DNA of 64,000 nucleotides. Origin: Actinomycetota bacterium (lineage in GTDB: Bacteria; Actinomycetota; UBA4738; HRBIN12). The notes under the pieces are model-generated. The model was not told the DNA's origin, did no database searches, and saw only the letters and a list, made by a program, of their open reading frames with translations. Below, in pieces: positions 4,737 through 62,279 of the stretch (positions are counted from its first letter, which is position 1; every line of letters starts with the position of its first letter). Both the position numbers and the translations under genes were made by a program. The stretch lies in NCBI GenBank assembly GCA_036265325.1, contig DATAPH010000023.1, forward strand, positions 32,264 through 96,263, read 5' to 3'.

Positions 4737-5867
4737 TCATCCGGTCTCGGTGAGCGCCGGTGGATCGTGCGTCGGCGCCGGGCCCGCGACGTAGGGCGTG
4801 CCGTCGGGCCGGTACCAGCGAAGATCGCCTTGCGCGCTTCCTTTGATCCACCAACCGTATTCGTGGACGAGCTTGTGGTGCCAGGAGCACAGGGTGGCGA
4901 GGTTGTCGAGGTCGGTCGCACCGCCCTCACGCCAGAACACGATGTGGTGCGCCTGCGTGAACGCCTTGGTGCCGCAGCCAGGGAACCGGCACCCGCCGTC
5001 GCGGTACCGGACCTGACGCAAGAGCCATGGCGGGGGCACGCGGGTGATGCGACCCATGCCGATCACCCGTCCGTCTGATGCCTCGTGCACCGTTTCGACA
5101 CGCGCGGCGCACAGCAGACGTTCGAGCGTCGACGGCTGCGCGATGCCGCCGCCCTCGACCTCAGCGCTCGTCGCTGCATCGGACGTGCCGACTCGGGCGT
5201 GGATCACGATCGTCGCGCGGTCGGGGTCCGGGTCGGCCGAGAGCCGCGCCGAGCACAACCCGACGAACGCGTCGGCCCGGCGGGCCGGCGCGTGCCGGGA
5301 GCCCTTCTCGTGCGGCATCTCCGGGACCGACGCCGCCACCCGATCGATCGCGGTCGCGACGACGGCGCCCTGCGCCGCGGGCAGGTCGGCGTGGAGCTCG
5401 AACCGACGTCCCTCGTCGCGGAACGCCCACGTGACCGAGCGCATCGCGTCGTCGTCGGCCGCTTCGTCCGGCTCGCCGCGGCGCGCGACGTCGCCTTCGT
5501 TGCGGATGCGGGCGGCCGACACCTTCTGCGCCCAGGGCACAAGCCCGTCTTCGGTGTCCGGCTGCGCGAAGCGCGCGAGCTCGACCACCTTGTCCACGCC
5601 CAGGTCGCCCCGGTCGAGCGCCTGTGAGATCGCGGGCAGGTGGGGAAGCGCGGCCGCCGCTTCGATCACCCGACGAGCCTTCCAATCGGACATTCCATAG
5701 CGCATCCACAACCACTGCGCGAGGTCGCGCGCGCCGTCGTTGGCCCAGGCGCATGTTCGATCCACTTCACGCACCGCGCTGAAGAACTCCTTGTTCGCGT
5801 GACCCATGCCCACATGGGCCTCATCGCACCGTTGGACGACAGCAGTTCGTCCATCTCTCTCATCCAC
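4737..5867 (-). CDS. DUF222-type HNH endonuclease (actinobacterial 13E12-repeat-like)
   Basis: C-terminal CRFPGCG...AHHIVFW...DLDNLATLCSWHHKLVH HNH motif. DUF222-like N-terminal helical region. Confidence 0.75.
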   Translation of the reverse strand: MDERDGRTAVVQRCDEAHVGMGHANKEFFSAVREVDRTCAWANDGARDLAQWLWMRYGMSDWKARRVIEAAAALPHLPAISQALDRGDLGVDKVVELARFAQPDTEDGLVPWAQKVSAARIRNEGDVARRGEPDEAADDDAMRSVTWAFRDEGRRFELHADLPAAQGAVVATAIDRVAASVPEMPHEKGSRHAPARRADAFVGLCSARLSADPDPDRATIVIHARVGTSDAATSAEVEGGGIAQPSTLERLLCAARVETVHEASDGRVIGMGRITRVPPPWLLRQVRYRDGGCRFPGCGTKAFTQAHHIVFWREGGATDLDNLATLCSWHHKLVHEYGWWIKGSAQGDLRWYRPDGTPYVAGPAPTHDPPALTETG

Positions 5868-15437: not shown

Positions 15438-17263
15438 CGGGCGTCGACCTCAACGGCGAGCGCCTGCTGCTCGCGACGGATCGCCCGGAACGCCTCGCGC
15501 AGGCCGCTGCGCTCGATCGACCCGAGGTCGTGCGGATCGACGAAGTCGTCGACGGTCACGTCGGCCCGAACCTGCGCCGCCTGATGCCGGAGGCGCAGAT
15601 CGAGCAGGAACCGGAACGCTTCGTCGAGCTCCGTGGCCGACAACGGGTCGAGCGTGCCGCCGCGGGCGGCGGCAGCGAGCCGCCCGAGCGTGTCCTTCGC
15701 CGTCGCTCCGGCGGCGACGGCGCGCGCGCGAGCGATCGACGTGATGATCGTGACGCCGCCGTGCTTGAGGTCGAGCGTGCCTCGATGCTCGCCTTTGGAC
15801 GCCACGACGAGATGCCGCACGAACCCGGTCGGCGGCTCGTGGCGAAGCGCTCCCTTGGTGAGTAGACGCGCGAACCCGGGGTTCGTCCGCGCCTCGGCCA
15901 CGGCCGCGTCGAGCGCGTCGTCCGCCGGCAGCGATCCCGCGACCGTGCGGAAGTCGAAGCCGATGGAGGACAGGATCATCCCGTCCGCGTCGGGTTGCCG
16001 GATCCACGTCCGGAACCGCTCCTGCCACGTGGTCAGCGGCGCTCGCATCGCCGAGTGGACCGCCATGGCATCGCCGTGGCATCGCGGGAACCCGATCGCC
16101 TCGAGTCCGGCCGTCACGCGCTCGGCGAGGGCCCTGAAGTACGCGTCGTGTTCGTCCGGATCGAATCCTGGGCCGAGCGCGAGCGCGTGATCTTGGTCAG
16201 CGTCGAGCGCGGGTTCGCGTCGGGCGGCGCTGCCCAGGGCAACCCACCCGAACGCGCACGGCGCGTCACCGAGCTCATCGCACGCGAGCTTCACGAGCCG
16301 CTCGGTGGCCGCCTCGATGATGATCGCGACGATCCGGCAGACGTCGATCGGATCCGTCCCCGCATCGACCAAGGCCGCGACAACACGTGGGTACGTTCGC
16401 GTCGCGTCGATGACCGCGTCGACCGTTGCTGCCCGGTCGATCGCGCCGCGCATCGAGAATGCGTTGCCGTCCTCGAGGCCCATCAGATCGGTGTCCGTGA
16501 CGACGCCGATCAAGCGGCCATCCTCGTCGACGGGGAGGTGGTGGATCCCCTTCGCGAGCATCATCAGGATCGCTTCGCCCGCCGGCATCGATGCCGGCGC
16601 GCGCAGGACCGGCTGCGTCGCAACGCCGAGAGCGGCACCGTCGAATGAACCGCGGGCGGCCACGACCTTGCTGCGGAGATCTCGGTCGGTGACGATCGCT
16701 TCGGTGGCGCCGCCCTGCAGCACCAGGCTGGACACGCGCGCGTCACGCATCACCGTCGCCGCCTCGGCGACCGTGATGCTCGGGTCGGCGGTGACGAGCG
16801 GCCGGCGGACCAGGGAGCCGATCCGCGCGAAGCGCGGATCGGCGGCGCGCGCCGACCGCGCGACCGCGTCGGCAGCGCGGATGCGCTGCCGCGCGATGGC
16901 CCAGACCGTGGCCACCCCGCTGGGGCCGCCGAAGACCCGGCGCGCCACGTCCGCGGGGATCAGGTAGCTCAACGTGTCTTCGACCGCGCGCACCGTCATC
17001 GAGGGTGGTTGCTTCGACATCGCGGAGAGGAATCCGAAGGTGTCACCGGGCTCGAGCTGGTCCACGAGGACGTCCCCGGTGACGAGCTCCAACGCGCCCT
17101 TGCGGATCACGCCGACCGCGTCGGCGACCGCGCCCCCTTCGGTCAGGACCGTCTCGCCCGCGGGTGTGAAGACGATCTCGAGCGACCCACCGACGCGCTC
17201 GAGCGCGTCGGCTTCGAGCTCAGAGAACGGGTGATACTGACGCAGGAACTCGAGCGGTTGCAC
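15434..17263 (-). CDS. Signal-transduction protein with cNMP-binding domain, CBS pair and DUF294 nucleotidyltransferase / DUF294_C domains
   Basis: N-terminal cNMP-binding fold (GDTFGFLSAM), two CBS modules, C-terminal DUF294-like region. 4-bp convergent overlap with fabI. Confidence 0.8.
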   Translation of the reverse strand: MQPLEFLRQYHPFSELEADALERVGGSLEIVFTPAGETVLTEGGAVADAVGVIRKGALELVTGDVLVDQLEPGDTFGFLSAMSKQPPSMTVRAVEDTLSYLIPADVARRVFGGPSGVATVWAIARQRIRAADAVARSARAADPRFARIGSLVRRPLVTADPSITVAEAATVMRDARVSSLVLQGGATEAIVTDRDLRSKVVAARGSFDGAALGVATQPVLRAPASMPAGEAILMMLAKGIHHLPVDEDGRLIGVVTDTDLMGLEDGNAFSMRGAIDRAATVDAVIDATRTYPRVVAALVDAGTDPIDVCRIVAIIIEAATERLVKLACDELGDAPCAFGWVALGSAARREPALDADQDHALALGPGFDPDEHDAYFRALAERVTAGLEAIGFPRCHGDAMAVHSAMRAPLTTWQERFRTWIRQPDADGMILSSIGFDFRTVAGSLPADDALDAAVAEARTNPGFARLLTKGALRHEPPTGFVRHLVVASKGEHRGTLDLKHGGVTIITSIARARAVAAGATAKDTLGRLAAAARGGTLDPLSATELDEAFRFLLDLRLRHQAAQVRADVTVDDFVDPHDLGSIERSGLREAFRAIRREQQALAVEVDAR

Positions 17264-17308
17264 CGGCAGCAGTATCGCCCGCTGCGGCTACACTCGCGCG
17301 CGTCTCCC

Positions 17309-17911
17309 ATGCCGCGAACCCGTTCGTTCCTGCCTTGCTTGCTGCTGGTCGTGGCGGCGTGCACCGGCACGACGACCAGCACGGCCGCACCCTCGACGAC
17401 CACTCCAACGTCATCGGGATCCGGTGTCGATCCGCTCGTGCCGTATTCACCCTCGCCGACGCCCGACGCGGCGGCCACGTCCGGCTTCATCCCGGACACG
17501 CTGACCGCGACCACCGACGGTGGCGGGTCTATGCGGCTGACGCCGGTTACGACCACGATGACGATGGCGTACGTGCACGAGAGCCGCGCCTTCACCGTCT
17601 ATCTCACGGCGACGAACCCCGGCACGAACCCCTGGCGCGGCGCGATCGGCGCCGACGCGCAGATCGCCGACCTGAACGGCGCGGTGTTCCCGTCGACGAG
17701 GCCCGCGCCCGGCGACCTGCATCCGGATCCCGGCCGGTACGGTGGTTCGAACAGGTCGTTCGAACGGCCGGTCTCGATCGCGCCCGGCGCGTCGGCCAAG
17801 GGCGCGCTGGTGTTCCACGTGACCGGAGCCAACCGCCCGGTCACGCTGCGGATCAGCTTGGACGGCGGCACGACGTGGGTCGAGTGGGCGACCAACCTTG
17901 GCGTGTTCTGA
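17309..17911 (+). CDS. Putative lipoprotein (DUF4352-like)
   Basis: Lipobox LLLVVAAC. Thr/Ser-rich linker, then a beta-rich domain. Confidence 0.55.
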   Translation: MPRTRSFLPCLLLVVAACTGTTTSTAAPSTTTPTSSGSGVDPLVPYSPSPTPDAAATSGFIPDTLTATTDGGGSMRLTPVTTTMTMAYVHESRAFTVYLTATNPGTNPWRGAIGADAQIADLNGAVFPSTRPAPGDLHPDPGRYGGSNRSFERPVSIAPGASAKGALVFHVTGANRPVTLRISLDGGTTWVEWATNLGVF

Positions 17912-17925
17912 GGGGGTGTTCTGAG

Positions 17926-18972
17926 ATGGCGGTTGCGGATCCGATCCGGCTCACCAGCCTGAGCCACGGCGCCGGGTGCGCCTGCAAGCTCGGGCCGAGC
18001 CAATTGCACGACGTGCTCGAGCTCCTCGGTCCGTCGGTGCCGACCGACGACGTCATCGTGTCCGAGGCGAGCGGCGACGATGCGGCGGTCTATCGCCTGT
18101 CCGACGGCCGCGGGGCGATCGTCACCCTGGACTTCTTCACGCCACTCGTCGACGACCCGTTCGATTGGGGCCGGATCGCCGCCGCGAACGCGTTGAGCGA
18201 CGTCTACGCGATGGGCGGGATTCCCGCGCTCGCGCTGAACGTCGCCGGATGGCCCGTCGACGTGCTGCCGCTCGAAACGCTCGCCGACGTGCTTCGAGGC
18301 GGCCGGGCGATCGCCGACGCGGCGGGGATCGCGGTCGTCGGGGGCCACACGATCACGACCGAGAAGGAACCGCTGTACGGCATGGTCGGCGTGGGGTTCG
18401 CGCCGCTCGACGCGCTGATCCGCAACACCGAGGCACGCCCGGGCATGTCGCTCGTCCTCACCAAGCCGATCGGCGTGGGGATGATCTCGACCGCCGCCAA
18501 GCGCGGGGTCGCGACCGACGCGCAGCTCGCCGACGCGGTCGCCACGATGACGACACTGAACGATCGCGCCTCGCGCGCGGCCGTCGCGTCGCGCGTCCGC
18601 GCGGGCACCGACGTGACGGGGTTCGGGCTGCTCGGCCATCTGCGGAAGTTGCTCGAGGCGAGCGGCTGCGCCGCGACCGTCGACGCGAGCGCCGTTCCCC
18701 TATTGGACGGGGCGCTCGACCATGCGCGGCGCGACGTCGTGGCGGGCGGCACCAAACGGAACCACGCGTGGCTGCAACCCACCACGGACTGGGGCGCGTG
18801 TACGGCGCCGGAGCAACTCCTGCTCGCCGACGCGCAGACCAGCGGGGGGCTGCTGCTCGTGACTGCGGATGCCGACGCGTTGGTCGCTGCCGGCATCGGC
18901 GCGCATGTGATCGGCGTCACGAGCGAGGGCACACCAGGCGCGATCCACGTCACGGGCCGCCTGGCGACCTGA
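17926..18972 (+). CDS. selD: Selenide, water dikinase (selenophosphate synthetase), Cys-type
   Basis: LSHGAGCACKLGP N-terminal catalytic motif (Cys, not Sec; no in-frame TGA). PurM-like fold motifs (DVYAMGG, GGHT). Confidence 0.85.
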   Translation: MAVADPIRLTSLSHGAGCACKLGPSQLHDVLELLGPSVPTDDVIVSEASGDDAAVYRLSDGRGAIVTLDFFTPLVDDPFDWGRIAAANALSDVYAMGGIPALALNVAGWPVDVLPLETLADVLRGGRAIADAAGIAVVGGHTITTEKEPLYGMVGVGFAPLDALIRNTEARPGMSLVLTKPIGVGMISTAAKRGVATDAQLADAVATMTTLNDRASRAAVASRVRAGTDVTGFGLLGHLRKLLEASGCAATVDASAVPLLDGALDHARRDVVAGGTKRNHAWLQPTTDWGACTAPEQLLLADAQTSGGLLLVTADADALVAAGIGAHVIGVTSEGTPGAIHVTGRLAT

Positions 18973-19087
18973 CAGGCTCGCCGTGCGGTGCGTGCGGGTT
19001 CGTACGGGAATAGACGACCCCACTGGTAGCATTTGCACCTGCAACAGGCGCGACGCGCCTGGACCGCGACCCCTTCGGAGCGCAGGT

Positions 19088-19486
19088 GTGACCGAGCTGG
19101 ACGGCGTCTATCGCAAGGAGATCGTGGAGCACGGGCTCCGCGAGTTCCCCAACGAGTGCTGCGGCCTCATCGCCGCGCAGGATGGTGTGCCCGCCAAGGT
19201 CTTCACCATGCGGAACGCCGACGCGAGCCCCGTCACCTACCGACTGGACGGCGTGGAGCAGCTCCGCGTGTTCGACCAGATGGACGACGAGGGGCTCGAG
19301 CTGTGGGCGATCTACCACTCGCACACACACTCCGAGGCGTATCCGAGCGACACCGACGTGAAGCTCGCGTTCTACCCCGACGCCCGATACATCTTGGTGT
19401 CGCTCGCCGACCGCGCCGATCCGGTTCTGCGCTCGTTCTTCATCGTCGACGGCGAGGTCTCCGAGGAGGAGCTGACGATCACATGA
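19088..19486 (+). CDS. mec: JAMM/MPN+ metallopeptidase, Mec (CysO-cleaving) type
   Basis: E(x)nHSHTHSEAYPSDTD JAMM motif. GTG start with GGAG 7 nt upstream. Stop overlaps the moeB start (ATGA). Confidence 0.75.
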   Translation: MTELDGVYRKEIVEHGLREFPNECCGLIAAQDGVPAKVFTMRNADASPVTYRLDGVEQLRVFDQMDDEGLELWAIYHSHTHSEAYPSDTDVKLAFYPDARYILVSLADRADPVLRSFFIVDGEVSEEELTIT

Positions 19487-20304
19487 CGAAGCCGTTCACC
19501 GAGGAGCAGGTCCAGCGATACGCGCGGCACATCATCCTGCCCAACATCGGCGGGGCCGGACAGCGCAAGCTCCTGGACGCGAGCGTCCTCGTGATCGGCG
19601 CCGGCGGCCTCGGCTCGCCGATCGCGATGTATCTCGCCGCCGCCGGGATCGGGAAGCTCGGCGTCGTCGACTTTGACCGCGTCGACGTGTCGAACCTGCA
19701 GCGTCAGATCCTGCACACCGACGCCGACGTCGGCCGGTCGAAAGTCGGATCGGCGGTCGAGCACCTGCGCGCGATCAACCCGACCATCGACGTCGTCGGC
19801 CACGACACGTTGCTGTTCTCGACCAACGTGTTCGATATCTTCGACGGCTACGACGTGATCGTCGACGGCACCGACAACTTCCCCGTCCGCTACCTGGTGA
19901 ACGACGCGTGCCAGTTCATGGGCAAGCCACTCGTGTACGGCTCGATCTATCAGTTCGAAGGGCAGGCGACGATCTTCATGCCGGGACAGGAGACGCCGTG
20001 CTACCGGTGCTTGTTCCCGTCCCCGCCGCCGCCCGGGACCGTACCGAGCTGCGCCGAAGGTGGCGTGTTCGGTGTGCTGCCCGGCGTGATCGGCTCGATC
20101 CAGGCGACCGAGGCGATCAAGCTGATCACGGGGGAGGGGGAGACCCTCGAGGGGCGGCTCCTTCTCTACGACGCTCTGCACATGGACTTCCAGGAAGTGA
20201 AGATCCGCTGGGACGCGGACTGCCCGGTGTGCGGCAAGGAACCGACGATCACCGAGTTGATCGACTACGAGCAGTTCTGCGGCGTGCCCGCCCGACCCGA
20301 GTGA
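19483..20304 (+). CDS. MoeB/ThiF/HesA family E1-like adenylyltransferase (no rhodanese domain)
   Basis: GAGGLGSP nucleotide-binding motif. Two CxxC pairs (CYRC...CPVC). 273 aa. Confidence 0.85.
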   Translation: MTKPFTEEQVQRYARHIILPNIGGAGQRKLLDASVLVIGAGGLGSPIAMYLAAAGIGKLGVVDFDRVDVSNLQRQILHTDADVGRSKVGSAVEHLRAINPTIDVVGHDTLLFSTNVFDIFDGYDVIVDGTDNFPVRYLVNDACQFMGKPLVYGSIYQFEGQATIFMPGQETPCYRCLFPSPPPPGTVPSCAEGGVFGVLPGVIGSIQATEAIKLITGEGETLEGRLLLYDALHMDFQEVKIRWDADCPVCGKEPTITELIDYEQFCGVPARPE

Positions 20305-20318
20305 GAGGTGCTGAACCG

Positions 20319-20594
20319 ATGGCCGTGACCGTGAAGCTCCCGACGATCTTGCGCAAGCACGCGGGCAACGAGGCGAAGGTGAGCGCCGAGGGATCGACGC
20401 TGATCGAGGTGCTGAAGGACCTCGAGTCGCGGTACCCCGGCATCACCAAGAATGTGATCGCCGACGACGGCGGCCTGCACCGGTTCATCAACGTCTATCT
20501 GAACGACGAGGACGTCCGGTACCTCGGCTCGCTCGAGACGCCGGTCGCCGACGGGGACACGATCTCGATCCTGCCTGCGGTGGCCGGCGGCTAA
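20319..20594 (+). CDS. cysO: MoaD/ThiS/CysO-type sulfur-carrier protein (C-terminal Gly-Gly)
   Basis: 91 aa, ubiquitin-like. Ends ...LPAVAGG*. Follows mec and moeB. GAGAGGTG SD. Confidence 0.7.
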   Translation: MAVTVKLPTILRKHAGNEAKVSAEGSTLIEVLKDLESRYPGITKNVIADDGGLHRFINVYLNDEDVRYLGSLETPVADGDTISILPAVAGG

Positions 20595-20602
20595 CACAGC
20601 TC

Positions 20603-21799
20603 CTAGCCTGGCGACGCTGCCGCTGCGGGCAGCTCGATCGAAACGGTCAGGCCGCCACCGGGCGTCTCCGACAGGCCGACGTGGCCGTGTTGCGCCTCGA
20701 CCCACGCTTGCGTGAGCGCAAGACCGAGGCCTGCCCCGCCGGTCTCACGAGCGCGGGACGGGTCCGCCCGGAAGAACCGATCGAACGCGCGCCCGTGGAG
20801 ATCTGTCGGCAGCCCAGGGCCGGCGTCCGCGACGTCGATCACGATCTCGCTGCCCTCGCGATGCGCGCTCACGTCCGCAGACCCGCCACCGTGGCGGGCG
20901 ACGTTCTCGAACACCGCGTCGAGCGCGATCTCCAACGCGGTTGTGTCGGCCATCGCGGTCAGGCCGTCGACCCCGTCGATGTGCAGCCGCAATCCGAGCG
21001 CGCGCTCGCTGCGCTCGGCAGCTTGGCCGATCGGCGCGGCAACGCGGACGGGTTTGAGGTCCAGCGCCGGGCCGCCCTCGGCGCGTGCGAGCAGGAGCAG
21101 GCGCTGCGACAGACCGGCCATGTAGTCGACCTCGCCTAGCACCTGGTCGCCGAGAGCCGGGTCGTTGGTCGCCAACACCTCGACCCCTTGCCGGATGAAG
21201 GTGAGCGGCGTCCGGAGCTCGTGGGACGCGTCGGCGGCGAAGGCGGCGCGCGCCTCATACGCTCGCTCCACCGGCCGGACGGCTCGGCCGGCGAGCCACC
21301 ATCCCGCGGCGAGGCTCGCGACCACTGCCAGGAGCGAGCCCGCGAGCAGCAGCATCCGGACGCGGTGCATGAGGTCGTCCTCTGCCAGCATCGAACGGCC
21401 CGCGACGACGACCACTTGGCTGTTGTCGCTGAGGGTCACCGGGACGGTGACGACGCGCACCCGCTCGCCGCTGACCGCGAGGTCGGTGACGGGCTGGGTG
21501 CCGGGTCTGAGCCACGAGGGCGTCTCCTTGGGCTCGCCGACCAGCGCACCGCTCCGCTTGTAGACGGCGAGCTGTGTTGCGGCGTTCGACGGCACGTCCG
21601 AGTCTGGCGGCGGCACCGGCCTCTCGGCTTCGTCGATCCGCGTCGCGACGCCCCCGGCCGACGCGCGCAGCTGGCTGGTGACCGATGCGTCGAGCGTGCG
21701 GGCGAGGACGTACTGCAGCGTCACGCCCAGGAGCACGAGGATCACGAACAACACGAGCGCGTGCGACAGCGCGATCCGAACGCGGAGCGATCGGAACAT
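20603..21799 (-). CDS. Two-component sensor histidine kinase
   Basis: H-box ASHELRTPL. N, G1 (DAGPG), G2 (GGAGLGL) boxes. Two TM segments with a periplasmic loop. Its start overlaps the response-regulator stop (TGATG). Confidence 0.8.
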   Translation of the reverse strand: MFRSLRVRIALSHALVLFVILVLLGVTLQYVLARTLDASVTSQLRASAGGVATRIDEAERPVPPPDSDVPSNAATQLAVYKRSGALVGEPKETPSWLRPGTQPVTDLAVSGERVRVVTVPVTLSDNSQVVVVAGRSMLAEDDLMHRVRMLLLAGSLLAVVASLAAGWWLAGRAVRPVERAYEARAAFAADASHELRTPLTFIRQGVEVLATNDPALGDQVLGEVDYMAGLSQRLLLLARAEGGPALDLKPVRVAAPIGQAAERSERALGLRLHIDGVDGLTAMADTTALEIALDAVFENVARHGGGSADVSAHREGSEIVIDVADAGPGLPTDLHGRAFDRFFRADPSRARETGGAGLGLALTQAWVEAQHGHVGLSETPGGGLTVSIELPAAAASPG

Positions 21800-22473
21800 C
21801 AGCGACCGACCACGTACCCGACGCCCCGGACCGTCTCGATGATGTCGCCCGCGTCGCCGAGCTTGCGCCGGAGATAGTGGACGTAGAGGTCCACCACCTT
21901 CGTCTGCGCGTCGAACGAGAAGTCCCAGACGAGCTCCTTCAGCTCCACGCGCGACAGGACGCGACCGCGGTGCTCCATCAGACACGCGAGCAGATCGAAC
22001 TCCTTGGCGGTGAGGTCGACCGTGCTGCCGTCGACCGTCACGAGGCGTGCGCGGGGATCGAGCCGGACCGCGCCGACGGTCATCGCACCGTCCTCGTCGG
22101 CGCGCGGCGCACGTCGGGCGAGCGCGTCGATCCGGGCGACGAGCTCCTTGAACGCGAACGGCTTGACGAGGTAGTCATCTGCGCCTGCGCGGAGTCCCGC
22201 GACGCGGTCGTCGACCGTGTCCCGCGCCGTGAGCATCAAGATCGGCGTCGTTACGCCACGCTCCCGAAGCGTGCTCGCGACGTGGAGCCCGTCCAGGCCC
22301 GGCAACATCACGTCGACGACCGCGAGGTCGAATCGGCCCGAGCTCGCCAGCCGGAGGCCCTCGTCGCCATCCGCGGCGGTCTCGGCGGAATGGCCTTCGC
22401 CACGCAGGCGGTCCGCCACCAGCGCCGACAGCCGGGTGTCGTCTTCGATCAGCAGGATCTGCACGGTCCACAT
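21799..22473 (-). CDS. OmpR-family response regulator
   Basis: ILLIEDD...DLAVVDVMLPGLDG receiver domain. Winged-helix C-terminal (VHYLRRKL...GVGY). Confidence 0.85.
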   Translation of the reverse strand: MWTVQILLIEDDTRLSALVADRLRGEGHSAETAADGDEGLRLASSGRFDLAVVDVMLPGLDGLHVASTLRERGVTTPILMLTARDTVDDRVAGLRAGADDYLVKPFAFKELVARIDALARRAPRADEDGAMTVGAVRLDPRARLVTVDGSTVDLTAKEFDLLACLMEHRGRVLSRVELKELVWDFSFDAQTKVVDLYVHYLRRKLGDAGDIIETVRGVGYVVGR

Positions 22474-22567
22474 CGTCCCAGGTCACGCTGGGTGTGCCGT
22501 GCATCCTTACCGATCTCAAATCGGAGACCGAACCGCATCCAATCGCTGGCACCGAACATCTTCGGAT

Positions 22568-23650
22568 ATGCAACGAACCCCCTTGCGACAGACACCGCAA
22601 CGTCCCGATCCGTACGGCATGCCATCGCGCGTGATGGCGCCGGTCTCGTTCGAGACCTCCTGGCGCGAGATGCCGTGGTCCCTGCGGATCCTCCGCGCGT
22701 TCCTCGGCGTGACGTTCGTCTACGCGGGACTCCAGAAGTTCCTCGATCCTGGGTTCCTTCACGCGGGCAGCCCGACGTACATCGGGACACAGCTGGCGGG
22801 GTTCGCGCGTGGAACACCGGCGGCGCCGTTGATGCGCGTGCTCGAACACGTGCCGTGGCTCGTTGGGGTCGGCGTTGCGATCACCGAGCTCGCCGTCGGC
22901 ATCGCGGTGCTCGCCGGGATCGGCCTGATCACGGCCTCCGTCATCGGGCTGTCGATCAACCTCGTCCTGTGGTTGTCGGCAACCTGGCATGTCCATCCGT
23001 ATTTCCTCGGCTCGGACTCGATCTATGCCGTGGCGTGGTTGGCGCTGATCGTCGGTTCGTGGCAGGTCGCGAAGGCGCGGCCCACGCCGCATCTGTCGCG
23101 TCGGTTCCAAGACCCGGACGCGATCGCGCGACGCGCGATGCTGCGCGGCGGTCTCGTGGCCGGCCTCGCGATCGCGCTCGGCGGTGTCGCGAGCGCGCTC
23201 GCCGGACCGCCGAACGCCGCGTCGTCGGGGATCACAGCCGCCGGCGGGACGGGCGCGCAGCGCGATCCATCACGGGCCGCCGAGCCGCCGCCCGCGACCG
23301 GATCCCCGTCGCCCAAGCCGACACCCGCGACCCCGGGCCGGACGATCACGAACCTCGATTCCCTTCGGGTCGGGCAGGCGCTCGGCTTCACCGCCCCCGG
23401 GGTCGGGCCGGCGGCGGTCGTTCGGCTCGCGAACGGCAGCGTCGTCGCGTACAGCCGCGTCTGCACCCACGCGGGGTGCATCGTCGGGTACGACACCGGC
23501 TCCCAACTGTTCGTCTGCCCCTGCCACGGCGCGGAGTTCAACCCCGCCCAGCATGCCGACCCAACCCCCGGGAGCCCGACCTCGACACCGCTGCAGATGA
23601 TCCGCGTCGTCGTCGACCAGTCGACGGGCGACGTGATCCTGCCGTCCTGA
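22568..23650 (+). CDS. DoxX-like membrane domain fused through a Pro-rich linker to a C-terminal Rieske [2Fe-2S] domain
   Basis: N-terminal four TM helices (LRAFLGVTFVYAGLQKF). C-terminal CTHAGC...CPCHGAEF Rieske motifs. Start uncertain (alternatives 22619 and 22634). Confidence 0.65.
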   Translation: MQRTPLRQTPQRPDPYGMPSRVMAPVSFETSWREMPWSLRILRAFLGVTFVYAGLQKFLDPGFLHAGSPTYIGTQLAGFARGTPAAPLMRVLEHVPWLVGVGVAITELAVGIAVLAGIGLITASVIGLSINLVLWLSATWHVHPYFLGSDSIYAVAWLALIVGSWQVAKARPTPHLSRRFQDPDAIARRAMLRGGLVAGLAIALGGVASALAGPPNAASSGITAAGGTGAQRDPSRAAEPPPATGSPSPKPTPATPGRTITNLDSLRVGQALGFTAPGVGPAAVVRLANGSVVAYSRVCTHAGCIVGYDTGSQLFVCPCHGAEFNPAQHADPTPGSPTSTPLQMIRVVVDQSTGDVILPS

Positions 23651-23705: not shown

Positions 23706-24638
23706 GTGCGCTACGACTCGATCCTCGACGCGATCGGCGACACGCCGCTCGTCGGCATCCCACGCATGTCGCCGCGCCCGGACGTGCGCCTGTGGGCCAA
23801 GCTCGAAGGGCAGAACCCGACCGGGTCGACGAAGGACCGGATCGCGCTCGCGATGATCGAGGCGGCGGAGGCGAGCGGCGTGCTCACCCCCGACCGGACC
23901 ATCCTAGAGCCGACCAGCGGCAACACCGGCATCGCCCTGGCGATGGTCGCCCGCAGGAAGGGCTACGAGCTCACCGTCGTGATCCCGGACAACGCGAGCG
24001 AGGAACGGATCGGCTTGCTCCGGCTGTTCGGCGCCGAGATCGTGTACTCGGACGGCGCCAAGGGCACGAACGGCTCGATCGAGGTCGCCCGGGCGCTCGC
24101 GCAAGACGAGCGCTACTTCATGCCGTTCCAATACGGCAATGCGGCCAACCCCGAAGCGCACGAGCGTGGCACCGCGCAGGAGATCATCCGCGATCTGCCC
24201 GAGGTGACGCACTTCGTTGCGGGCATGGGCACGGGCGGCACGCTCACCGGCACGGGACGCGGACTGCATGCCTACCGGTCCGACATCCAGGTGATCGCCG
24301 CGGAACCCGAGCTCGGCGACCTCGTGTACGGGCTCCGGTCGCTCGACGAAGGGTTCATCCCGCCGATCTTCGATCCGGCGCAGATAGACCGGAAGTTCCT
24401 GGTGAACGCGGTCGACTCGTTGCGCGCGACCCGAGCGTTGACAGAGAAAGAGGGCATCTTCGCTGGCGTTTCGAGCGGCGCCGTGATCCACGTCGGCCAG
24501 CGCGTCGCGCAGGACCTCGACGCCGGTGACATCGTGTGCCTGCTGCCCGACGGCGGGTGGAAGTATCTGTCCACCGACGCGTGGCACGAGGACGCGACGG
24601 CGGCGGAGAAGGGGATCGAGGGGTCGCTGTGGTGGTAG
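23706..24638 (+). CDS. Cysteine synthase (CysK/CysM family; likely the CysO-dependent CysM partner)
   Basis: PTGSTKDR (PLP lysine), SGNTG, GxGTGGT motifs. Confidence 0.85.
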   Translation: MRYDSILDAIGDTPLVGIPRMSPRPDVRLWAKLEGQNPTGSTKDRIALAMIEAAEASGVLTPDRTILEPTSGNTGIALAMVARRKGYELTVVIPDNASEERIGLLRLFGAEIVYSDGAKGTNGSIEVARALAQDERYFMPFQYGNAANPEAHERGTAQEIIRDLPEVTHFVAGMGTGGTLTGTGRGLHAYRSDIQVIAAEPELGDLVYGLRSLDEGFIPPIFDPAQIDRKFLVNAVDSLRATRALTEKEGIFAGVSSGAVIHVGQRVAQDLDAGDIVCLLPDGGWKYLSTDAWHEDATAAEKGIEGSLWW

Positions 24639-24641
24639 CGC

Positions 24642-25448
24642 GTGGGGGATGACCGTCCGATCGGCGTCTTCGACTCCGGCGTCGGGGGGCTGACGGTCGC
24701 GCGGGCGATCTGGGAGCTGCTGCCCAACGAGTCCGTCGCCTATGTCGGCGACGGGGCGCATTTCCCCTACGGGCCGCGGCCTATCGAGGAGATCCGTCGG
24801 TTCGCGATGGGGATCGCCGGGCACCTCGTCGCCCGTGGCGTGAAGCTCCTCGTCGTGGCCTGCAACTCCATCGAGGTGTCCGCGATCGGCGACATCGCGG
24901 CGGCGGCCGACGTTCCGGTCGTCGGGGTGATCGCACCGGGTGTGCGAGCCGCCCTCCGTGCCACGCGCAACGGAAAGGTCGGCGTGATCGGGACGGAGGC
25001 GACGATCCGGACGGGCGGCTATCAGCGCGCCGTGGGTTCGGGCGCGACGCTGGTCGCCGCCGCGTGTCCCGTCTTCGTCGAGCACGTCGAGCGGGGCGAT
25101 ACGACGAGCGCCGCGCTGCGGTCGGCCGCGGCAGGGTATCTTGCACCGCTGGAACAGGAGGGTGTGGACACGGTGATCATGGGCTGCACGCACTATCCGC
25201 TGTTGTCGGGGTTGCTCCAGCTCGAACTGGGTCCCGACGTGGTTCTGGTGTCCTCCGCGGAAGAGACCGCCAAGGACGTCTACGCCGAACTCGTGCGGGG
25301 CGACGCGCTGCGCGATGCGGCAGGGCCGCCGACCCACACGTTCGCGACGACCGGCGACGCGGACGCCTTCCGCGATCTCGCCGAACGGGTGCTCGGCCTC
25401 GAGATCGCCCGCGTCGACGCCGCCGCGATCGGAGAGGACGCCGCGTGA
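24642..25448 (+). CDS. murI: Glutamate racemase
   Basis: PIGVFDSGVGGLTV and VACNS/GCTHYP catalytic cysteine motifs. GTG start. Confidence 0.85.
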   Translation: MGDDRPIGVFDSGVGGLTVARAIWELLPNESVAYVGDGAHFPYGPRPIEEIRRFAMGIAGHLVARGVKLLVVACNSIEVSAIGDIAAAADVPVVGVIAPGVRAALRATRNGKVGVIGTEATIRTGGYQRAVGSGATLVAAACPVFVEHVERGDTTSAALRSAAAGYLAPLEQEGVDTVIMGCTHYPLLSGLLQLELGPDVVLVSSAEETAKDVYAELVRGDALRDAAGPPTHTFATTGDADAFRDLAERVLGLEIARVDAAAIGEDAA

Positions 25449-26197
25449 GGCTGACCGTGCTCGGTTCGCAAGGCACGTGGCCGGGGGCCGCGCGGGAGTG
25501 CTGCGGCTATCTGCTCACCGCCGACGGCTTCAACCTCTGGCTCGACGCGGGGACTGGGACCTTCGCGCGGCTGCAAGAGCATCTGTCCGTCGGCGATCTC
25601 GGCGGCCTGTTGATCTCCCACGGCCACGCCGACCATTTCCTCGACATCATCCCCGCGTTCTACGCGCGCCACTACGGCGGCATGGGCACGCCGGGGCTTC
25701 CGTTCCATTCGCCACCCGGGTTCACCGACCTCGCGGCGTTGCTCGTATCGGAGGCCGGTCGCAACGTCATGGGCGAGACGTATGACTTCACCAAGGCGAT
25801 TCCCGGCGGCGTGTTCGAGGTCGGCCCGTTCCGCGTGATGCCGTACGAGATGACGCACATCGGCGTTCCGTCGCTCGGCTACCGGATCGAGGCCGACGGC
25901 AAGACGCTCGCGTACACCGGCGATACCGGACCGTGCGACGAGGCGGTCAAGCTCGCGCAGGACGCCGACCTTTTCTTGTGCGAGGCGACGTACCAGAACG
26001 ACTCGGAGCTTTCGTTCTTCCATCTGAGCGCGCTGCAGGCAGCGGAGCACGCGGCCGCCGCCGGCGCGTCGCGGCTGGTGCTGACGCACATCACGCCGAA
26101 CCTCGACCCCGGCGTTTCGCTCGAACAGGCGGCGGTGGGCTACGGCGGCTCGATCGACGTCGCCGTGCCCGACATGGTGATCGAGGTCGGCGCATGA
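25445..26197 (+). CDS. MBL-fold metallo-hydrolase (Rv1339-like, cyclic-nucleotide phosphodiesterase/RNase-Z-like)
   Basis: HGHADH metal motif. GTGA overlap with the murI stop. Confidence 0.75.
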
Positions 26198-26901
26198 CGC
26201 GTCCCGACGGACGCGACGCCGCCACGCTGCGTCCGGTCGCCTACGAGCTCGGGTATCAGGAGTGGGCGGCCGGATCCATCCTGTTCTCGATGGGCAAGAC
26301 GCGCGTGCTCTGCGCGGCATCGGTCTCCGACGACACGCCCCGCTGGCTCCGCGGCACGGGGAAGGGTTGGGTGACGGGGGAGTACTCGATGTTGCCGGCG
26401 GCCACGTCGGAGCGCTCGGCGCGTGAGGTGACGCGCGGGCGGCCGGGCGGCCGCACCCAGGAGATCCAGCGGCTGATCGGTCGGGCGCTCCGCAGCGTCA
26501 CCGACCTGCGCGCGATCGGCGAGCGGATGGTGACGATCGATTGCGACGTGCTGCAGGCCGATGCGGGGACGCGCACGGCGTCGATCACCGGCGGGTATGT
26601 CGCGCTCGCGATGGCGCTCCGCGGCGCGGGCGTCGAGAACGCGCTCCGCGACTCGGTCGCCGCGGTCAGCGTCGGCCTGGTCGAGGGCGAGGCGCGGTTG
26701 GACCTGTGTTACGAGGAAGACGCCGGCGCCGAGGTCGACTGCAACGTCGTCATGACCGGCGACGGCCGGCTCGTCGAGGTGCAGGGCACGGCCGAGGGCG
26801 CGCCGTTCGACCGGGCGCAGCTCGACGCGTTGCTCGACCTGGCCGCGACGGGGATCGGCGAGCTCACCGAGATCCAGCGCACGGCGCTCGCGAGCGCGTG
26901 A
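26194..26901 (+). CDS. rph: Ribonuclease PH
   Basis: RPDGR...TRVLCAASV and [15 protein letters not shown] motifs. ATGA overlap with the upstream gene. Confidence 0.85.
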
Positions 26902-27503
26902 CCGGCCTGCCGCCGAGGATCGCCCTCGCGACCCACAACCCCCACAAGCTCCGCGAGCTCGCACGGATCTGTGCGGATTGGTCGACCGAGTGGGTGAGCG
27001 TCGAGAACCACGACGCGTCGGCGTTCCCGGATGTCGAGGAGACGGGCGCGACATACCTCGACAACGCGCGGTTGAAGGCCGAGGCGGTCGCGGCGGCGTC
27101 GGGTTTGCCGGCCCTGGCCGACGACTCCGGCATCGAGGTCGACGCGCTCGGCGGGGCGCCCGGCCCGCGGAGCGCCCGCTACGCGGGCGAGCACGCGTCC
27201 GACGAGGAGAACCTCCGGGCGCTGATCCAGGCGATCCGCGGGATCCCCGCCTCCGGCCGGTCGGCCCGATACCGGTGCGTCGCGGCGTTGGCCTGGCCCG
27301 ACGGCCGGTTCGCGCACGCCGACGGTGCTTGCGAGGGAACGCTTCGCACGACGCCGGCCGGCTCGGGCGGGTTCGGCTATGACCCGATCGTCGTGCCCGT
27401 CGGATGGGACGTCACGATGGCCGAGCTGACCGACGAACAGAAGGACCGGATCAGCCACCGGGGCCGGGCGTGCCGGGCGCTCCGCGAGCTGCTCGACGGC
27501 TGA
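26898..27503 (+). CDS. rdgB: RdgB/HAM1 non-canonical purine NTP pyrophosphatase
   Basis: [13 protein letters not shown] and FGYDPIVVP motifs. GTG start overlapping the rph stop. Confidence 0.8.
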
Positions 27504-53521: not shown

Positions 53522-54874
53522 GTGACGCCTCCCGAGCGCGGGCCTGCGCCCGCCGAGCGTATGACGGTTGCGATCGTCGGTGACCTGATCTCCACACGGC
53601 CGATCGCGCCGATGCTTGCGAATGACGCCCGGTTCGCGGCCGCCATCGAACGGCTCAATACAGTCGATGTCGCCGTCGGCAACCTCGAGTTCGCCGCTGC
53701 GGACCCGGACGACCCGGAGGCGTGGATCTGGTCGATGCCCAACGACTGGTCCATCGCGTCCGATCCGGCCGCCGTGGGCGACCTCCGTGACCTGGGGTTC
53801 GGTGCGGTTGGGCGGGCCAACAACCACACGATGGACCGCGGCCCCGCGGGCATGCGCACGACCACTCTGCTGCTCGACGAGGCCGGCATCGACCACGCTG
53901 GCGCCGGCGAGGATCTCGCACGTGCCGGCGCACCGCGGTATCACGAGACGGCGCGCGGCAGGCTCGGGATCGTCAGCGTGACCACGAGCCCGTCGCCGCC
54001 CGACACCGCCGGAGCGCTCGATGCATTCGCCGGCCTCGCGCCGCGCCCCGGTGTGCATGCGCTCGCGGTTGAACCCGTCGTCACGGTTCCCGGCCCGGCA
54101 CACGAGGCGCTCCGCGCGGTGCACGACCTCGTCCCGGATGCGATGGGCGAATGGATGAACGGCGATCCGGGGCTGCGCGTGTTCACCGCGCGGTTCGAGC
54201 GGGGCGACGACGTGTCCGTGCGCTACGAGGTCGACCCCGAGGGACGCGCTCGGCTCCTTCGCTCGGTTCGCCAGGCGGCGAAGCACGCCGACGTCGTGAT
54301 CATGACGGTGCACGCCCATCAGGGGGACGCGGACCCGGCGACGCCGCCCGCGTTCCTCCGGGAGCTGGGCCGCGACGCGATCGCGGCGGGCGCAGACGCG
54401 GTGGCGGTAAGCGGCCCGCACACGCTCGCGCCCGTCGAGCTCGTCGACGGGCGTCCCGTGTTCTTCGGCCTCGGTGACTTCATCTGGAGCGACCTCGGCG
54501 GTCCGCTTCCGGCATCGTTCTGGCCCAGGACGCGGGCGGTGCTTGGGTCGGACATCGACCCGGCGACGATGACGGAAGCGGAGCTGGTCGAGCGGCTCAA
54601 CGACGACGGGTTCACCGACCCGTGGGTGTTCCGGGCGGTCCAGGCCGAGCTGGTCATCGGGCCGACGGGCGTCGAACAGGTGCAGGTCCACCCCGTGGAC
54701 CTCGGTCAGCACGAGCCGATCACGCGGCGCGGTGTGCCGCGCGTCGCCGAACCGTCGGTTGCGGCTGAGATCCTCGAGCGGCTCGCAACCATGTCGGCGC
54801 CCTTCGGCGTGACCGTCGACGTCGCCGACGGTGTCGGCACGGTGAGGCCTCGGGAGACCGCGCCCGCCGGCTGA
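53522..54874 (+). CDS. CapA/PgsA-family metallophosphatase-like protein
   Basis: VAVGNLE and GRANNHTMDRG motifs of the CapA family. Confidence 0.7.
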   Translation: MTPPERGPAPAERMTVAIVGDLISTRPIAPMLANDARFAAAIERLNTVDVAVGNLEFAAADPDDPEAWIWSMPNDWSIASDPAAVGDLRDLGFGAVGRANNHTMDRGPAGMRTTTLLLDEAGIDHAGAGEDLARAGAPRYHETARGRLGIVSVTTSPSPPDTAGALDAFAGLAPRPGVHALAVEPVVTVPGPAHEALRAVHDLVPDAMGEWMNGDPGLRVFTARFERGDDVSVRYEVDPEGRARLLRSVRQAAKHADVVIMTVHAHQGDADPATPPAFLRELGRDAIAAGADAVAVSGPHTLAPVELVDGRPVFFGLGDFIWSDLGGPLPASFWPRTRAVLGSDIDPATMTEAELVERLNDDGFTDPWVFRAVQAELVIGPTGVEQVQVHPVDLGQHEPITRRGVPRVAEPSVAAEILERLATMSAPFGVTVDVADGVGTVRPRETAPAG

Positions 54875-59974: not shown

Positions 59975-61342
59975 ATGGCAACGACCGAGTTCGACCTCGG
60001 CAAGATCGACGAGCTGATCGCCAAAGAAGAGGCGATCCTCGAGCCGCGGCACAAGGAGTCGATCGCGTACCGCGAGATCGCAGACCGTCATGTCGCGGGG
60101 GGTGTCGCTTCGAGCTGGCAGGACTCGCCGCCACACGCGATCTTCATCGACCGCGGCAAGGGGTCCCGTATCTGGGACATCGACGGAAACGAGTACATCG
60201 ACTTCCACCTCGGCTACGGCGCGATGGTGGTGGGACACGCGAACCCAACGATCATCGACGCGATCAAGAAGGCCGCCGACCGTGGCACGCATTTCGCGCA
60301 GCCGACCAGGGATCTCGACGTGATCGGCGAGAATCTGACCGACCGGTTCAAGCTCCCGCTGTGGCGCTTCGCCAACTCCGGGACCGAGGCGACGCTCGAG
60401 GCGCTCCGTTTGATGCGCGCCAACACCGGCCGCGACATGCTCATCAAGATCGAGGGCTCGTATCACGGACACCACGACTCGATCATGTTCAGCGTCGCGC
60501 CCGACCGCTCCGAGATCGGGCCGCGCGAGCACCCGGTCACGGTTCCGCAGGCGATGGGCATCCCGCAGGCGTTCGCCGACCTGGTTCGTGTCGTGCCGTT
60601 CAACGATCTGGTCGAAGCGAAGCGCGCGTTCGACGAGAACCCCGGCAAGATCGCCGGCATGATCGTCGAGCCGGCGATGATGAACTGCGGCGTGATCTTG
60701 CCGGAGCCCGGCTACCTACAGGGCCTGAAGGACCTTTGCCACGAGAACGGCGCGTACCTCGCATTCGACGAGGTCAAGACCGGCGCGACGCTCGCGTACG
60801 GGGGGGCCGTTGAGTCGTTCGGCGTGGTGCCCGACGTGATCTGTCTCGCGAAGGCGATTGGCGGCGGCACGCCGTGCGGCGCCATCGGGTCGACCGAGGA
60901 TCTGTACGGCCCGGTGATCCGCGGCGAGTACGACATGGCCGGCACGTTCAACGGCAACCCGCTCACGATGGCCGCCTCGCGCGCCACGCTCACCGAGGTG
61001 CTCGTGCCCGAGGTGTACGAGCACTTCACCCGGATCGACAAGGTGATGAAGGACGGTCTCAACTCGGTGGTCGAGAAGTACGAGCTGCCGTGCTACGTGA
61101 CCGGCCTCGGCGCGAAGGGTTCGGTGATCTACTCGAACCAGCCGGTGCGCGAGTACCGCGACGCGGTCGGCATCGATGAGCGGATCAGCTACCTCGCGTG
61201 GCTCTTCCAGCAGAACCGCGGCGTGTTCAAGTCTCCCTGGACCAAGCAGGAGACCTGGACGACATCGGTCGCGCACACCGAGGACGACGCGTCTCGATAC
61301 ATCGCGAACTTCGAGGAGTTCGCGTCGGCCGTCACGTCCTGA
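59975..61342 (+). CDS. Class III (GSA-aminomutase-like) PLP-dependent aminotransferase
   Basis: GNEYIDFHLGYGAMVVGH, DEVKTG and LAKAIGGG (PLP lysine) motifs. GCAGGAGGCAG SD. Confidence 0.8.
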   Translation: MATTEFDLGKIDELIAKEEAILEPRHKESIAYREIADRHVAGGVASSWQDSPPHAIFIDRGKGSRIWDIDGNEYIDFHLGYGAMVVGHANPTIIDAIKKAADRGTHFAQPTRDLDVIGENLTDRFKLPLWRFANSGTEATLEALRLMRANTGRDMLIKIEGSYHGHHDSIMFSVAPDRSEIGPREHPVTVPQAMGIPQAFADLVRVVPFNDLVEAKRAFDENPGKIAGMIVEPAMMNCGVILPEPGYLQGLKDLCHENGAYLAFDEVKTGATLAYGGAVESFGVVPDVICLAKAIGGGTPCGAIGSTEDLYGPVIRGEYDMAGTFNGNPLTMAASRATLTEVLVPEVYEHFTRIDKVMKDGLNSVVEKYELPCYVTGLGAKGSVIYSNQPVREYRDAVGIDERISYLAWLFQQNRGVFKSPWTKQETWTTSVAHTEDDASRYIANFEEFASAVTS

Positions 61343-61382: not shown

Positions 61383-62279
61383 ATGACGCCCGAACCGACG
61401 CCGGTCGAGCTGCCCGACGGGCGCTCCGTCGACGTCTACGTCGACGGGCCGCCTGACGGTGTGCCGCTCGTCTCGCATCACGGCACGCCCGGCGCCGGGC
61501 TGCCGTACGGTCCGTTCGTCCGGGCGGCGGCCGAACGAGGCATGCGATGGGTCTCGTACTCGCGGCCCGGCTACGCCTCGTCGACCCGCGTCGAGGGGCG
61601 ATCGGTTGCCGACTGCGTCGCCGACGTCGTTGCGATCGTCGATAGCCTCGGCGCCGGTCGCTTCTACACGACCGGCGGCTCGGGCGGCGGCCCGCATACC
61701 CTCGCGTGCGCCGCGCTGCTGCCAGACCGGGTGCTCGCATGCGCGGCGATCGCCTCGGTGGCGCCGCGCGACGCATCGGGCTTGGACTGGACCGACGGCA
61801 TGGGCCCCGAGAACATCGAAGAGTTCGGCGCCGCCGAGGAGGGTCCCAACGCGCTCGAGCGTTTCCTCGAGCCAGAGGCGCAGGGTTTGCGAGAAGCGAA
61901 CTCTGCGCAGGAGCTGATCGACACGATGGCCGGGCTGTTGCCGCCGGTCGATCGCGGCGCGCTGAGCGGCGCCTACGCCGAGGCGACGATCGAGTCGATG
62001 CATCGCTCGGTCCGGAGCGGCATCTGGGGTTGGTTCGACGACGACATGGCGTTCCTCAAGGACTGGGGCTTCTCGGTCGACGCGATCGAGGTTCCCGTCG
62101 CGGTGTGGCAGGGCCGACATGACCAGATGGTTCCGTTCGGGCACGGTGCGTGGCTCGCGGAGCACACGGCCGGCGCACGCCCGCACCTGCTGGTCGACCA
62201 CGGGCATCTTTCGATCGCGGTCTCGTCGTACGACCGGGTGCTCGACGACCTGCTCGAGATGGAGAAGGAGCGCGCATGA
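61383..62279 (+). CDS. Alpha/beta-hydrolase fold protein
   Basis: Nucleophile-elbow-like GGSGGG. Catalytic His near the C-terminus (DHGHLS). Confidence 0.7.
   Translation: MTPEPTPVELPDGRSVDVYVDGPPDGVPLVSHHGTPGAGLPYGPFVRAAAERGMRWVSYSRPGYASSTRVEGRSVADCVADVVAIVDSLGAGRFYTTGGSGGGPHTLACAALLPDRVLACAAIASVAPRDASGLDWTDGMGPENIEEFGAAEEGPNALERFLEPEAQGLREANSAQELIDTMAGLLPPVDRGALSGAYAEATIESMHRSVRSGIWGWFDDDMAFLKDWGFSVDAIEVPVAVWQGRHDQMVPFGHGAWLAEHTAGARPHLLVDHGHLSIAVSSYDRVLDDLLEMEKERA

Follow-up and report, generated by a model that had tools for sequence, protein, structure and literature searches.

Why does a gene for selenophosphate synthetase stand directly in front of the genes for a sulfur-carrier system? 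The question is raised by a 64,000-nucleotide stretch of DNA, hereafter the window, from an Actinomycetota bacterium (GTDB lineage UBA4738, HRBIN12; assembly GCA_036265325.1, contig DATAPH010000023.1, positions 32,264 to 96,263 of the forward strand). Here a Cys-type selD with the active-site motif HGAGCACK precedes, across a spacer of 115 bp, the genes mec, moeB and cysO, which encode a JAMM metalloprotease, an E1-like adenylyltransferase and a ubiquitin-like carrier. An initial annotation of the window had described this layout, a MoeB without a rhodanese domain, and the absence from all 64 kb of selA, selB, the selenocysteine (Sec) tRNA, selU, yqeB and yqeC. All three statements hold: the genes lie where they had been placed, Pfam finds ThiF alone in MoeB, and neither tblastn nor a tRNA search recovered any of the listed selenium genes. 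The annotation had set a coincidental placement of selD beside an ordinary CysO pathway against a handling of selenium by MoeB and CysO.

We favour, with some reserve, a third reading, in which two ordinary systems became neighbors by inheritance: a canonical SelD serving Sec decoding, and a conserved mec-(moeB)-cysO-cysM-murI-rph-rdgB block at whose edge it sits. In this scenario selD would have been placed at the 5' edge of the block, which also includes a metallo-beta-lactamase (MBL)-fold gene between murI and rph, in the ancestor of two uncultured Actinomycetota clades, and would have been kept there since. The SelD product would most likely feed selenocysteine-tRNA synthesis by a SelA encoded elsewhere in the genome, a consumer deduced from relatives. 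MoeB would adenylate the C-terminal glycine of CysO, a sulfur donor acting in trans, presumably free sulfide or a separate sulfurtransferase, would give the CysO thiocarboxylate, CysM would condense this with O-phosphoserine, and Mec would release cysteine.

A canonical SelD in a selenocysteine-using lineage

The window selD (17926..18972, + strand) encodes a selenide,water dikinase of 348 amino acids that scores 360.1 bits against the TIGR00476 cut-off of 125 and 344.6 bits against the NF002098 cut-off of 299, with both AIRS and AIRS_C matched in Pfam. It is 42% identical to Escherichia coli SelD and keeps the active-site motif, the Cys, the Lys and the Asp ligands. In the comparison with the E. 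coli protein the conserved motif is numbered SHGAGC(17)xC(19)K(20); in the window SelD residues 13-21 read SHGAGCACK, and the catalytic Cys codon is TGC (17977-17979). In an alignment of 78 SelDs that includes the E. coli protein, 78 columns are invariant, and D51, D69, D92 and D229 are invariant as well. Only one column discriminates between mec-linked and unlinked SelDs at 90% or more, and on that count we rejected an altered SelD function. Because the scores lie far above equivalog cut-offs, the motif is kept and clade-specific changes are lacking, the protein is, to judge from its sequence, a canonical selenophosphate synthetase with no sign of changed function.

What, then, uses its product? 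Near selD we found no consumer. No tRNA-Sec was detected by ARAGORN in the window or within ~10 kb of selD in related loci, and E. coli SelU, SelA, SelB, YqeB and YqeC had no tblastn match in the window. Together with YedE and YedF, these queries likewise found nothing in the ~1.75 Mb of related loci, YedE and YedF also being without a match in the window; for SelU, YqeB and YqeC the thresholds were E<=1e-3 (window and loci L001-L083) and E<=1e-5 (metagenome loci L087-L166). Neither an EgtB-like SenA nor a TIGR04348 SenB was present among the proteins covered by our domain scans, which took in ~38 of the ~60 called window genes.

The relatives give a different picture. In a systematic scan of the catalytic SelD codon we counted TGC 69 times, TGT 16 times and TGA 10 times, and locus L172 adds an eleventh TGA (L015:5282, L034:1041, L045:412, L046:3265, L047:10040, L049:10049, L057:239, L078:2357, L101:4540, L108:3548 and L172:9920). 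Six of these loci are metagenome-assembled genomes (MAGs) with the order selD-mec-moeB-cysO (L015, L034, L045, L046, L047, L049), two are metagenome contigs with the same order (L101, L108), and two belong to a clade that lacks moeB (L057, L172). The mec operon is on the same contig in 10 of the 11, the contig of L078 stopping after selD. On either side of the TGA the frame is kept open and the conserved residues continue (MREEVRL..SHGAG*ACKLGP), and ~30-46 nt after the UGA all Sec-type loci have the hairpin GGCCCAG-GUN-CUGGGCC, with 7 bp and a G-U in the apical loop, the GUN loop lying ~36 nt from the UGA. RNAalifold recovers this hairpin, two of whose pairs show compensatory changes and one a G-U wobble; the hairpin was not found in the Cys-type sequences inspected, the window's included. 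In position, size and apical G-U it matches the selenocysteine insertion sequence (SECIS) elements of bacteria. By these features SelD is evidently a selenoprotein in 11 related loci.

A UGA-encoded Sec in SelD needs SelA, SelB and tRNA-Sec, so the insertion machinery (selA, selB, selC) must, if the TGA is decoded as predicted, be encoded elsewhere in the Sec-type genomes, which would give the lineage an ordinary consumer of selenophosphate. The initial annotation had seen no obvious consumer of the SelD product nearby; this stands for the window, and the premise of a SelD without any consumer is weakened for the lineage. It also follows that no new selenium chemistry is needed to account for selD, since the Sec-type relatives show an ordinary user of its product. 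The proposed selenium handling by MoeB and CysO gains no positive support, and we consider it improbable.

The distribution of the TGA codon points to repeated exchanges of Sec and Cys in SelD within the uncultured clades. Mec, MoeB, CysO, CysM and their neighbors were also screened by tblastn for Cys/TGA pairs, and none turned up; SelD alone shows the exchange. Among prokaryotes Sec-type proteins make up 19% of SelDs, and SelA and/or YbbB occurs in 93% of SelD-bearing organisms (PMC4561486); in Actinobacteria the Sec trait occurs and the selenouridine trait was not found (PMC5322559). Surveys of orphan SelDs list seven Actinobacteria and propose isochorismatase-like, ABC-ATPase and cysteine-desulfurase-like genes as neighbors (PMC5029168).

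Could SelD instead make thiophosphate from sulfide, and so provide the sulfur donor for CysO in place of a rhodanese? The idea has a published counterpart in a crenarchaeal family of distant SelD-like proteins, proposed to be thiophosphate synthases and encoded among sulfur-metabolism genes (PMC4210487), and it would suit a MoeB that lacks a rhodanese. However, the window SelD is a high-scoring equivalog rather than a member of that 26%-identity family, SelD has no clade-specific substitutions, and an active-site Sec in eleven relatives requires a selenium-using cell. We find this proposal scarcely credible. Nor, to our knowledge, does E. coli SelD use sulfide.

An adjacency kept across two clades

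How widely is selD found in front of mec? A scan of one genome per GTDB species with SelD gave 80 loci; every one of them came from a MAG, and almost every one from Actinomycetota. The window SelD itself was matched solely on short metagenome contigs, on which the layout is identical. In 47 of the 80 loci, each a species-level MAG, mec lies downstream of selD, directly so in 41, and L028 is a further case that is probably disguised by a frameshift artefact. The window order with moeB and cysO is present in 44 of the 47, at SelD identities from 93% down to 53%, and L051, L052 and L057 have selD-mec-cysO-cysM-murI without moeB.

The reverse test, with MoeB as query against metagenome contigs, gave the order mec-moeB-cysO in 23 of 23 contigs with matches of at least 69% identity. 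Of these contigs, 18 reach far enough 5' to be informative about selD, and 16 of them have it upstream. L095 has a gene for a PfkB-like kinase between selD and mec; this kinase gene is also found, directly 5' of mec, in L094 and L098, whose contigs end short of the position of selD. With the SelD of L051 as query, the order selD-mec-cysO-cysM-murI-MBL-rph-rdgB appeared in all four long contigs inspected (L169-L172). The moeB-less clade (L051, L052, L057, L169-L172) has a gene order like that of Mycobacterium tuberculosis with selD added at the front. In a neighbor-joining tree of SelD, the moeB-containing loci form one monophyletic clade, which fits vertical inheritance, and the moeB-less loci group apart from it as a small clade, on a branch shared with the unlinked Acidimicrobiia-type SelDs.

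These counts bear on the claim that selD sits beside mec by coincidence: with the pair kept in 47 MAGs and in 16 of the 18 metagenome contigs that could show it, that claim has to be given up. The conventional reading to which it belonged survives in its other half, the delivery of CysO thiocarboxylate to CysM being the best-supported account, given CysM and CysO proteins like those of M. tuberculosis and a canonical SelD. The initial annotation had also named two observations that would together speak against a selenium link: that related genomes lack the adjacency, and that another part of the same genome encodes a standard selenium trait. The adjacency proves to be conserved, and the trait is indicated only indirectly, through the relatives.

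Does conservation then imply a shared function? Within this block adjacency by itself is no sign of one, because cysM and murI, which have no known functional tie, are directly adjacent in 32 of 32 related loci, a better retention than that of selD-mec (41 of 47) and a far better one than that of the true functional pair cysO-cysM (17 of 38). The selD-mec adjacency is the one piece of positive support for a mechanism that would tie selenium to the CysO system, and we judge such a link improbable.

Upstream of selD the neighbors vary among lipoprotein-like, PfkB-like kinase, amidohydrolase-like, response regulator and other genes. The genes that in some loci separate selD from mec, or cysO from cysM, are unrelated from locus to locus; by their sequences they resemble such proteins as a TetR-type regulator, a cupin, an aldo-keto reductase and a protease; none hints at a sulfur or selenium role, and we discarded them as candidates.

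By-eye reading of the loci with unlinked, Acidimicrobiia-type selD (L050, L053-L083) shows a distinct shared context, with MBL-fold, thioredoxin-like and NlpC/P60 proteins upstream and an esterase-thioredoxin fusion on the opposite strand 3' of selD. The same reading found no obvious selenium gene among these neighbors, so the consumer is unlinked there too. In L028, L033, L042, L066 and L171 selD or its neighbors look frameshifted; since some of these MAGs are probably long-read assemblies, sequencing indels are more likely than pseudogenes.

The selD-mec-cysO arrangement appears to have gone unreported so far, and its confinement to uncultured MAGs is the probable reason. A literature search returned no paper tying selD to CysO, to a thiocarboxylate carrier or to a biological selenocarboxylate. 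Surveys of selD neighborhoods that are limited to overlapping open reading frames (ORFs) or to annotated isolates miss associations of this kind.

The carrier module, its regulation and the case for a selenium link

The window has a G+C content of ~70%, and genes were called by G+C at third codon positions and supplemented with Pfam and NCBIfam domain searches. The gene mec (19088..19486, +) encodes a JAMM/MPN+ metalloprotease (Pfam Prok-JAB, 75 bits) with the motif H77-S-H79-x7-S87-x2-D90, HSHTHSEAYPSDTD at residues 77-90, and the protein is predicted to hydrolyse CysO-Cys. The start of moeB (19483..20304, +; 273 amino acids) overlaps the mec stop codon (ATGA), and cysO (20319..20594, +) follows, encoding a ThiS/MoaD-fold carrier of 91 amino acids (Pfam ThiS) with a C-terminal Gly-Gly. 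CysO ends in ...AVAGG, and its best PDB matches are 4N6E_B from Amycolatopsis (E 4e-31) and 3DWG_C, the CysO of M. tuberculosis (E 4e-29). The gene cysM (23706..24638, +) encodes a pyridoxal phosphate-dependent cysteine synthase, probably of the type that uses O-phosphoserine and CysO thiocarboxylate; the protein is clearly closest to M. tuberculosis CysM (3DWG, 3DKI), to which it scores 338 bits, the next family reaching 240. The gene calls murI, an MBL-fold gene, rph and rdgB (24642..27503, +) complete the syntenic block.

MoeB has a GAGGLG motif, two CxxC motifs and Cys190, and no rhodanese domain. It is closest to E. coli MoeB, Uba4 and ThiF, and its best NCBIfam models are those of MoeB, MoeZ and UbaA, all below cut-off save the PRK05690 subfamily. 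All 57 of its nearest homologues outside the clade (at most 67% identical) have ~110 additional amino acids at the C terminus, two of them being truncated by contig ends, and in both outside homologues that were scanned Pfam identifies a rhodanese in this extension. The rhodanese-less form is thus specific to the selD-linked clade, in which it occurs in 23 of 23 cases as against 0 of the 57, and the loss is a single evolutionary event. An account of the M. tuberculosis CysO/CysM pathway of cysteine synthesis has been published (PMC12910592). Because the E1 here is not of the MoeZ type with a C-terminal rhodanese, the system appears to be a variant of CysO-dependent cysteine biosynthesis and not the canonical arrangement.

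The composition of the module, a rhodanese-less E1, a Gly-Gly-ended ubiquitin-like protein and a JAMM protease, recalls archaea, and it is conceivable that mec-moeB-cysO is also, or instead, a conjugation system of the SAMP/UbaA/JAMM1 kind to which selD is unrelated. CysO scores 64.1 bits with the NCBIfam SAMP1 model, above its cut-off of 60, and MoeB and Mec match the UbaA and desampylase models with 360.8 and 67.2 bits; these last two scores fall under the cut-offs of 450 and 130, the closest relatives of CysO are the M. tuberculosis and Amycolatopsis proteins, and cysM is contiguous with cysO in 17 relatives. We think conjugation very unlikely.

Under the proposal of selenium handling by MoeB and CysO, selenophosphate would attack adenylated CysO, yielding a CysO selenocarboxylate from which CysM and Mec would make free selenocysteine or pass selenium to another acceptor. 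The chalcogen lost with the rhodanese persulfide would then be supplied by selenophosphate, which is the selenium nucleophile in the SelA, SelU and SenB reactions (bioRxiv 10.1101/2022.04.13.486033). Several observations weigh against our preferred reading, and some of them lend themselves to this one. The operon MoeB lacks a rhodanese (clade members have 270-290 amino acids), its rhodanese-less form is exclusive to the selD-linked clade, and no rhodanese, or other trans sulfur donor, is encoded within 10 kb of the cluster in related loci; this clade-specific loss remains odd if the two systems are simply neighbors. The genes selD-mec-moeB-cysO-cysM are contiguous in many relatives, selD stays directly with mec although the genes upstream have been rearranged repeatedly, and the selD-mec pair (41/47) is better retained than the functional pair cysO-cysM, which is contiguous in 17 of 38 loci. 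Moreover, selA, selB and selC were not found within ~10 kb of selD in any locus, and the window SelD is of the Cys type, so that a consumer in the window genome is inferred from relatives. The upstream rearrangement, the contrast with cysO-cysM and the rhodanese loss suit a functional tie about as well as they suit synteny.

What tells against the selenocarboxylate route is, in the first place, the ordinary SelD consumer that Sec-type SelDs indicate for the lineage. The second clade keeps selD-mec-cysO-cysM without an operon moeB, so the selD-mec link is independent of the rhodanese-less MoeB. Rhodanese loss happened once, and rhodanese-less E1-like enzymes such as E. coli MoeB and ThiF work with sulfur donors in trans. 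SelD has no clade-specific changes, mec probably has a promoter of its own, and the literature searched gave no biological protein selenocarboxylate. Free selenocysteine is, besides, generally toxic. We regard the forward route as improbable, and are nearly as doubtful of the broader proposition that SelD, the rhodanese-less MoeB, CysO, Mec and CysM form one selenium pathway, run forward or in reverse, beside Sec decoding.

The evidence for a separate mec promoter comes from an element at 19006..19044 (+) that abuts the selD stop codon and is conserved across the selD-mec spacers of the relatives compared (L004-L049, L087-L109). It comprises a GGGAATA motif (19006-19012, +), an extended -10 box, TGGTAGCAT (19024-19032, +), of the form TGnTAnnnT, with the T-A-n-n-n-T pattern typical of -10 boxes, and a perfect palindrome, TTGCAccTGCAA (19033-19044, +). 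The element remains with mec where selD has been displaced, and we infer that it is a promoter/operator driving mec. Its GGAAT...(G/A)TT spacing bears a loose resemblance to SigH/SigR-type promoters. Between 17000 and 21000 we found neither a terminator nor a sigma-70 consensus promoter, and we discarded the idea that the selD-mec spacer holds a riboswitch or another known RNA: across the window no Rfam model reached its gathering threshold, and even at E<=1 the region 17200-20700 gave no credible match. With no terminator or known RNA element in between, read-through from selD into mec is possible.

Upstream, selD follows an ORF for a lipoprotein-like protein (17309..17911, +; no Pfam or NCBIfam match) whose stop lies 14 nt from the selD start, a spacing that makes co-transcription probable in the window genome; homologues of this gene (cluster c28) are found 5' of selD in the closest relatives only. 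Many other relatives (L012, L016-L018, L020, L024-L027, L036, L041, L043-L048) have a TATCCT box ~7 nt before the selD ATG, which suggests a leaderless selD transcript and is absent upstream of the window selD.

These elements bear on a looser connection, in which the CysO/CysM/Mec route adventitiously makes free selenocysteine from selenide and a lyase passes the selenium on to SelD, or in which the two systems are co-regulated under thiol or redox stress, which would favour their staying together. In E. coli, free selenocysteine made by the cysteine synthases is a source of selenium for SelD; in Mycobacterium and Streptomyces, the SigH/SigR oxidative-stress regulons include mec-cysO-cysM. 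The conserved selD-mec adjacency, the promoter/operator-like element with its scope for read-through and the cysteine-desulfurase-like genes near orphan selD (PMC5029168) can be cited for such a connection. But no selenocysteine lyase or NifS-like neighbor was noted when cluster representatives were read by eye, with no targeted search; YedE and YedF are absent from the loci by tblastn; the palindrome occurs once in the window and was not found upstream of its selD or cysM; and selD has a different promoter, of the TATCCT leaderless type, in many relatives. On balance an indirect coupling is unlikely, if less so than a selenocarboxylate on CysO.

The remaining features of the window lie apart from this argument. 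A lineage-specific insertion of 3.1 kb (20603..23650) parts cysO from cysM and holds, in order, genes for a histidine kinase (20603-21799, -), a response regulator (21799-22473, -) and a DoxX-Rieske membrane protein (22631-23650, +). The same trio lies upstream of selD in L013, L019 and L040, and many loci have the block without it; the trio behaves as a block relocated around the cluster. Among housekeeping genes at 4737-5813 (-) is a gene with DUF222 and an HNH endonuclease, which resembles the repeat-family elements common in actinobacterial genomes. Two similar genes of 455 amino acids (59975-61342 and 62276-63643, +) flank an ORF at 61383-62279; the first encodes a class-III aminotransferase resembling glutamate-1-semialdehyde aminomutase, and since the two are equally long and alike at the N terminus, we judge the second to be its paralogue. 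At 53561-54874 lies a gene for an MslH-like protein.

Significance and comparison with known systems

If synteny is all that joins the two systems, the locus still reveals a clade-wide variant of the CysO operon, with the E1 inside the operon and lacking a rhodanese, and a large lineage of uncultured soil Actinobacteria that uses selenocysteine, its SelD alternating between Sec and Cys. A true functional link would add a protein-carrier branch to selenium metabolism; in either form, forward or reverse, it would be the first case of a protein carrying a selenocarboxylate and would add to the selenium traits that depend on SelD. Beyond Sec, selenouridine, the molybdenum-hydroxylase cofactor and selenoneine-type metabolites, no SelD-dependent product is known to us.

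The closest known system is mec-cysO-cysM of M. tuberculosis (Rv1334-Rv1336), which shares with the window a JAMM Mec, a ThiS-fold, Gly-Gly-ended CysO and a CysM whose nearest solved structure is the mycobacterial enzyme, as well as the downstream synteny cysM-murI-MBL-rph-rdgB. The M. tuberculosis E1, MoeZ (Rv3206c), is unlinked and has a rhodanese, whereas the window MoeB lies between mec and cysO and has none; selD precedes mec in the window but not in M. tuberculosis; and cysO and cysM are split in the window by the 3.1-kb insertion, unlike their mycobacterial counterparts. With the bacterial Sec-decoding trait the locus shares a SelD that is 42% identical to the E. coli protein with all catalytic residues, and its relatives share a UGA with a SECIS-type hairpin at the Sec position; it differs in that selA, selB and selC are unlinked to selD in the loci examined and the window SelD has the Cys form.

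The archaeal SAMP/UbaA/HvJAMM1 and Thermus TtuB/TtuC systems combine a rhodanese-less E1, a Gly-Gly-ended carrier and a JAMM protease as the window does, but the window proteins score below the UbaA and desampylase cut-offs, and their genomic context is that of cysM rather than of tRNA thiolation or conjugation targets. The senABC cluster for selenoneine, whose SenC is a SelD homologue, is a precedent for a selD homologue that marks a new selenium pathway by its association with genes of neither the Sec nor the selenouridine trait. Unlike it, the window has primary-metabolism cysteine genes as neighbors and no SenA or SenB among the proteins scanned. The selenoneine survey counted only ORFs that overlap selD (bioRxiv 10.1101/2022.04.13.486033), so mec, 115 bp away, would be missed. 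Lastly, the crenarchaeal SelD-like family, found in organisms without selenium use, shares only ~26% identity with SelD, whereas the window encodes a true SelD and comes from a selenocysteine-using lineage.

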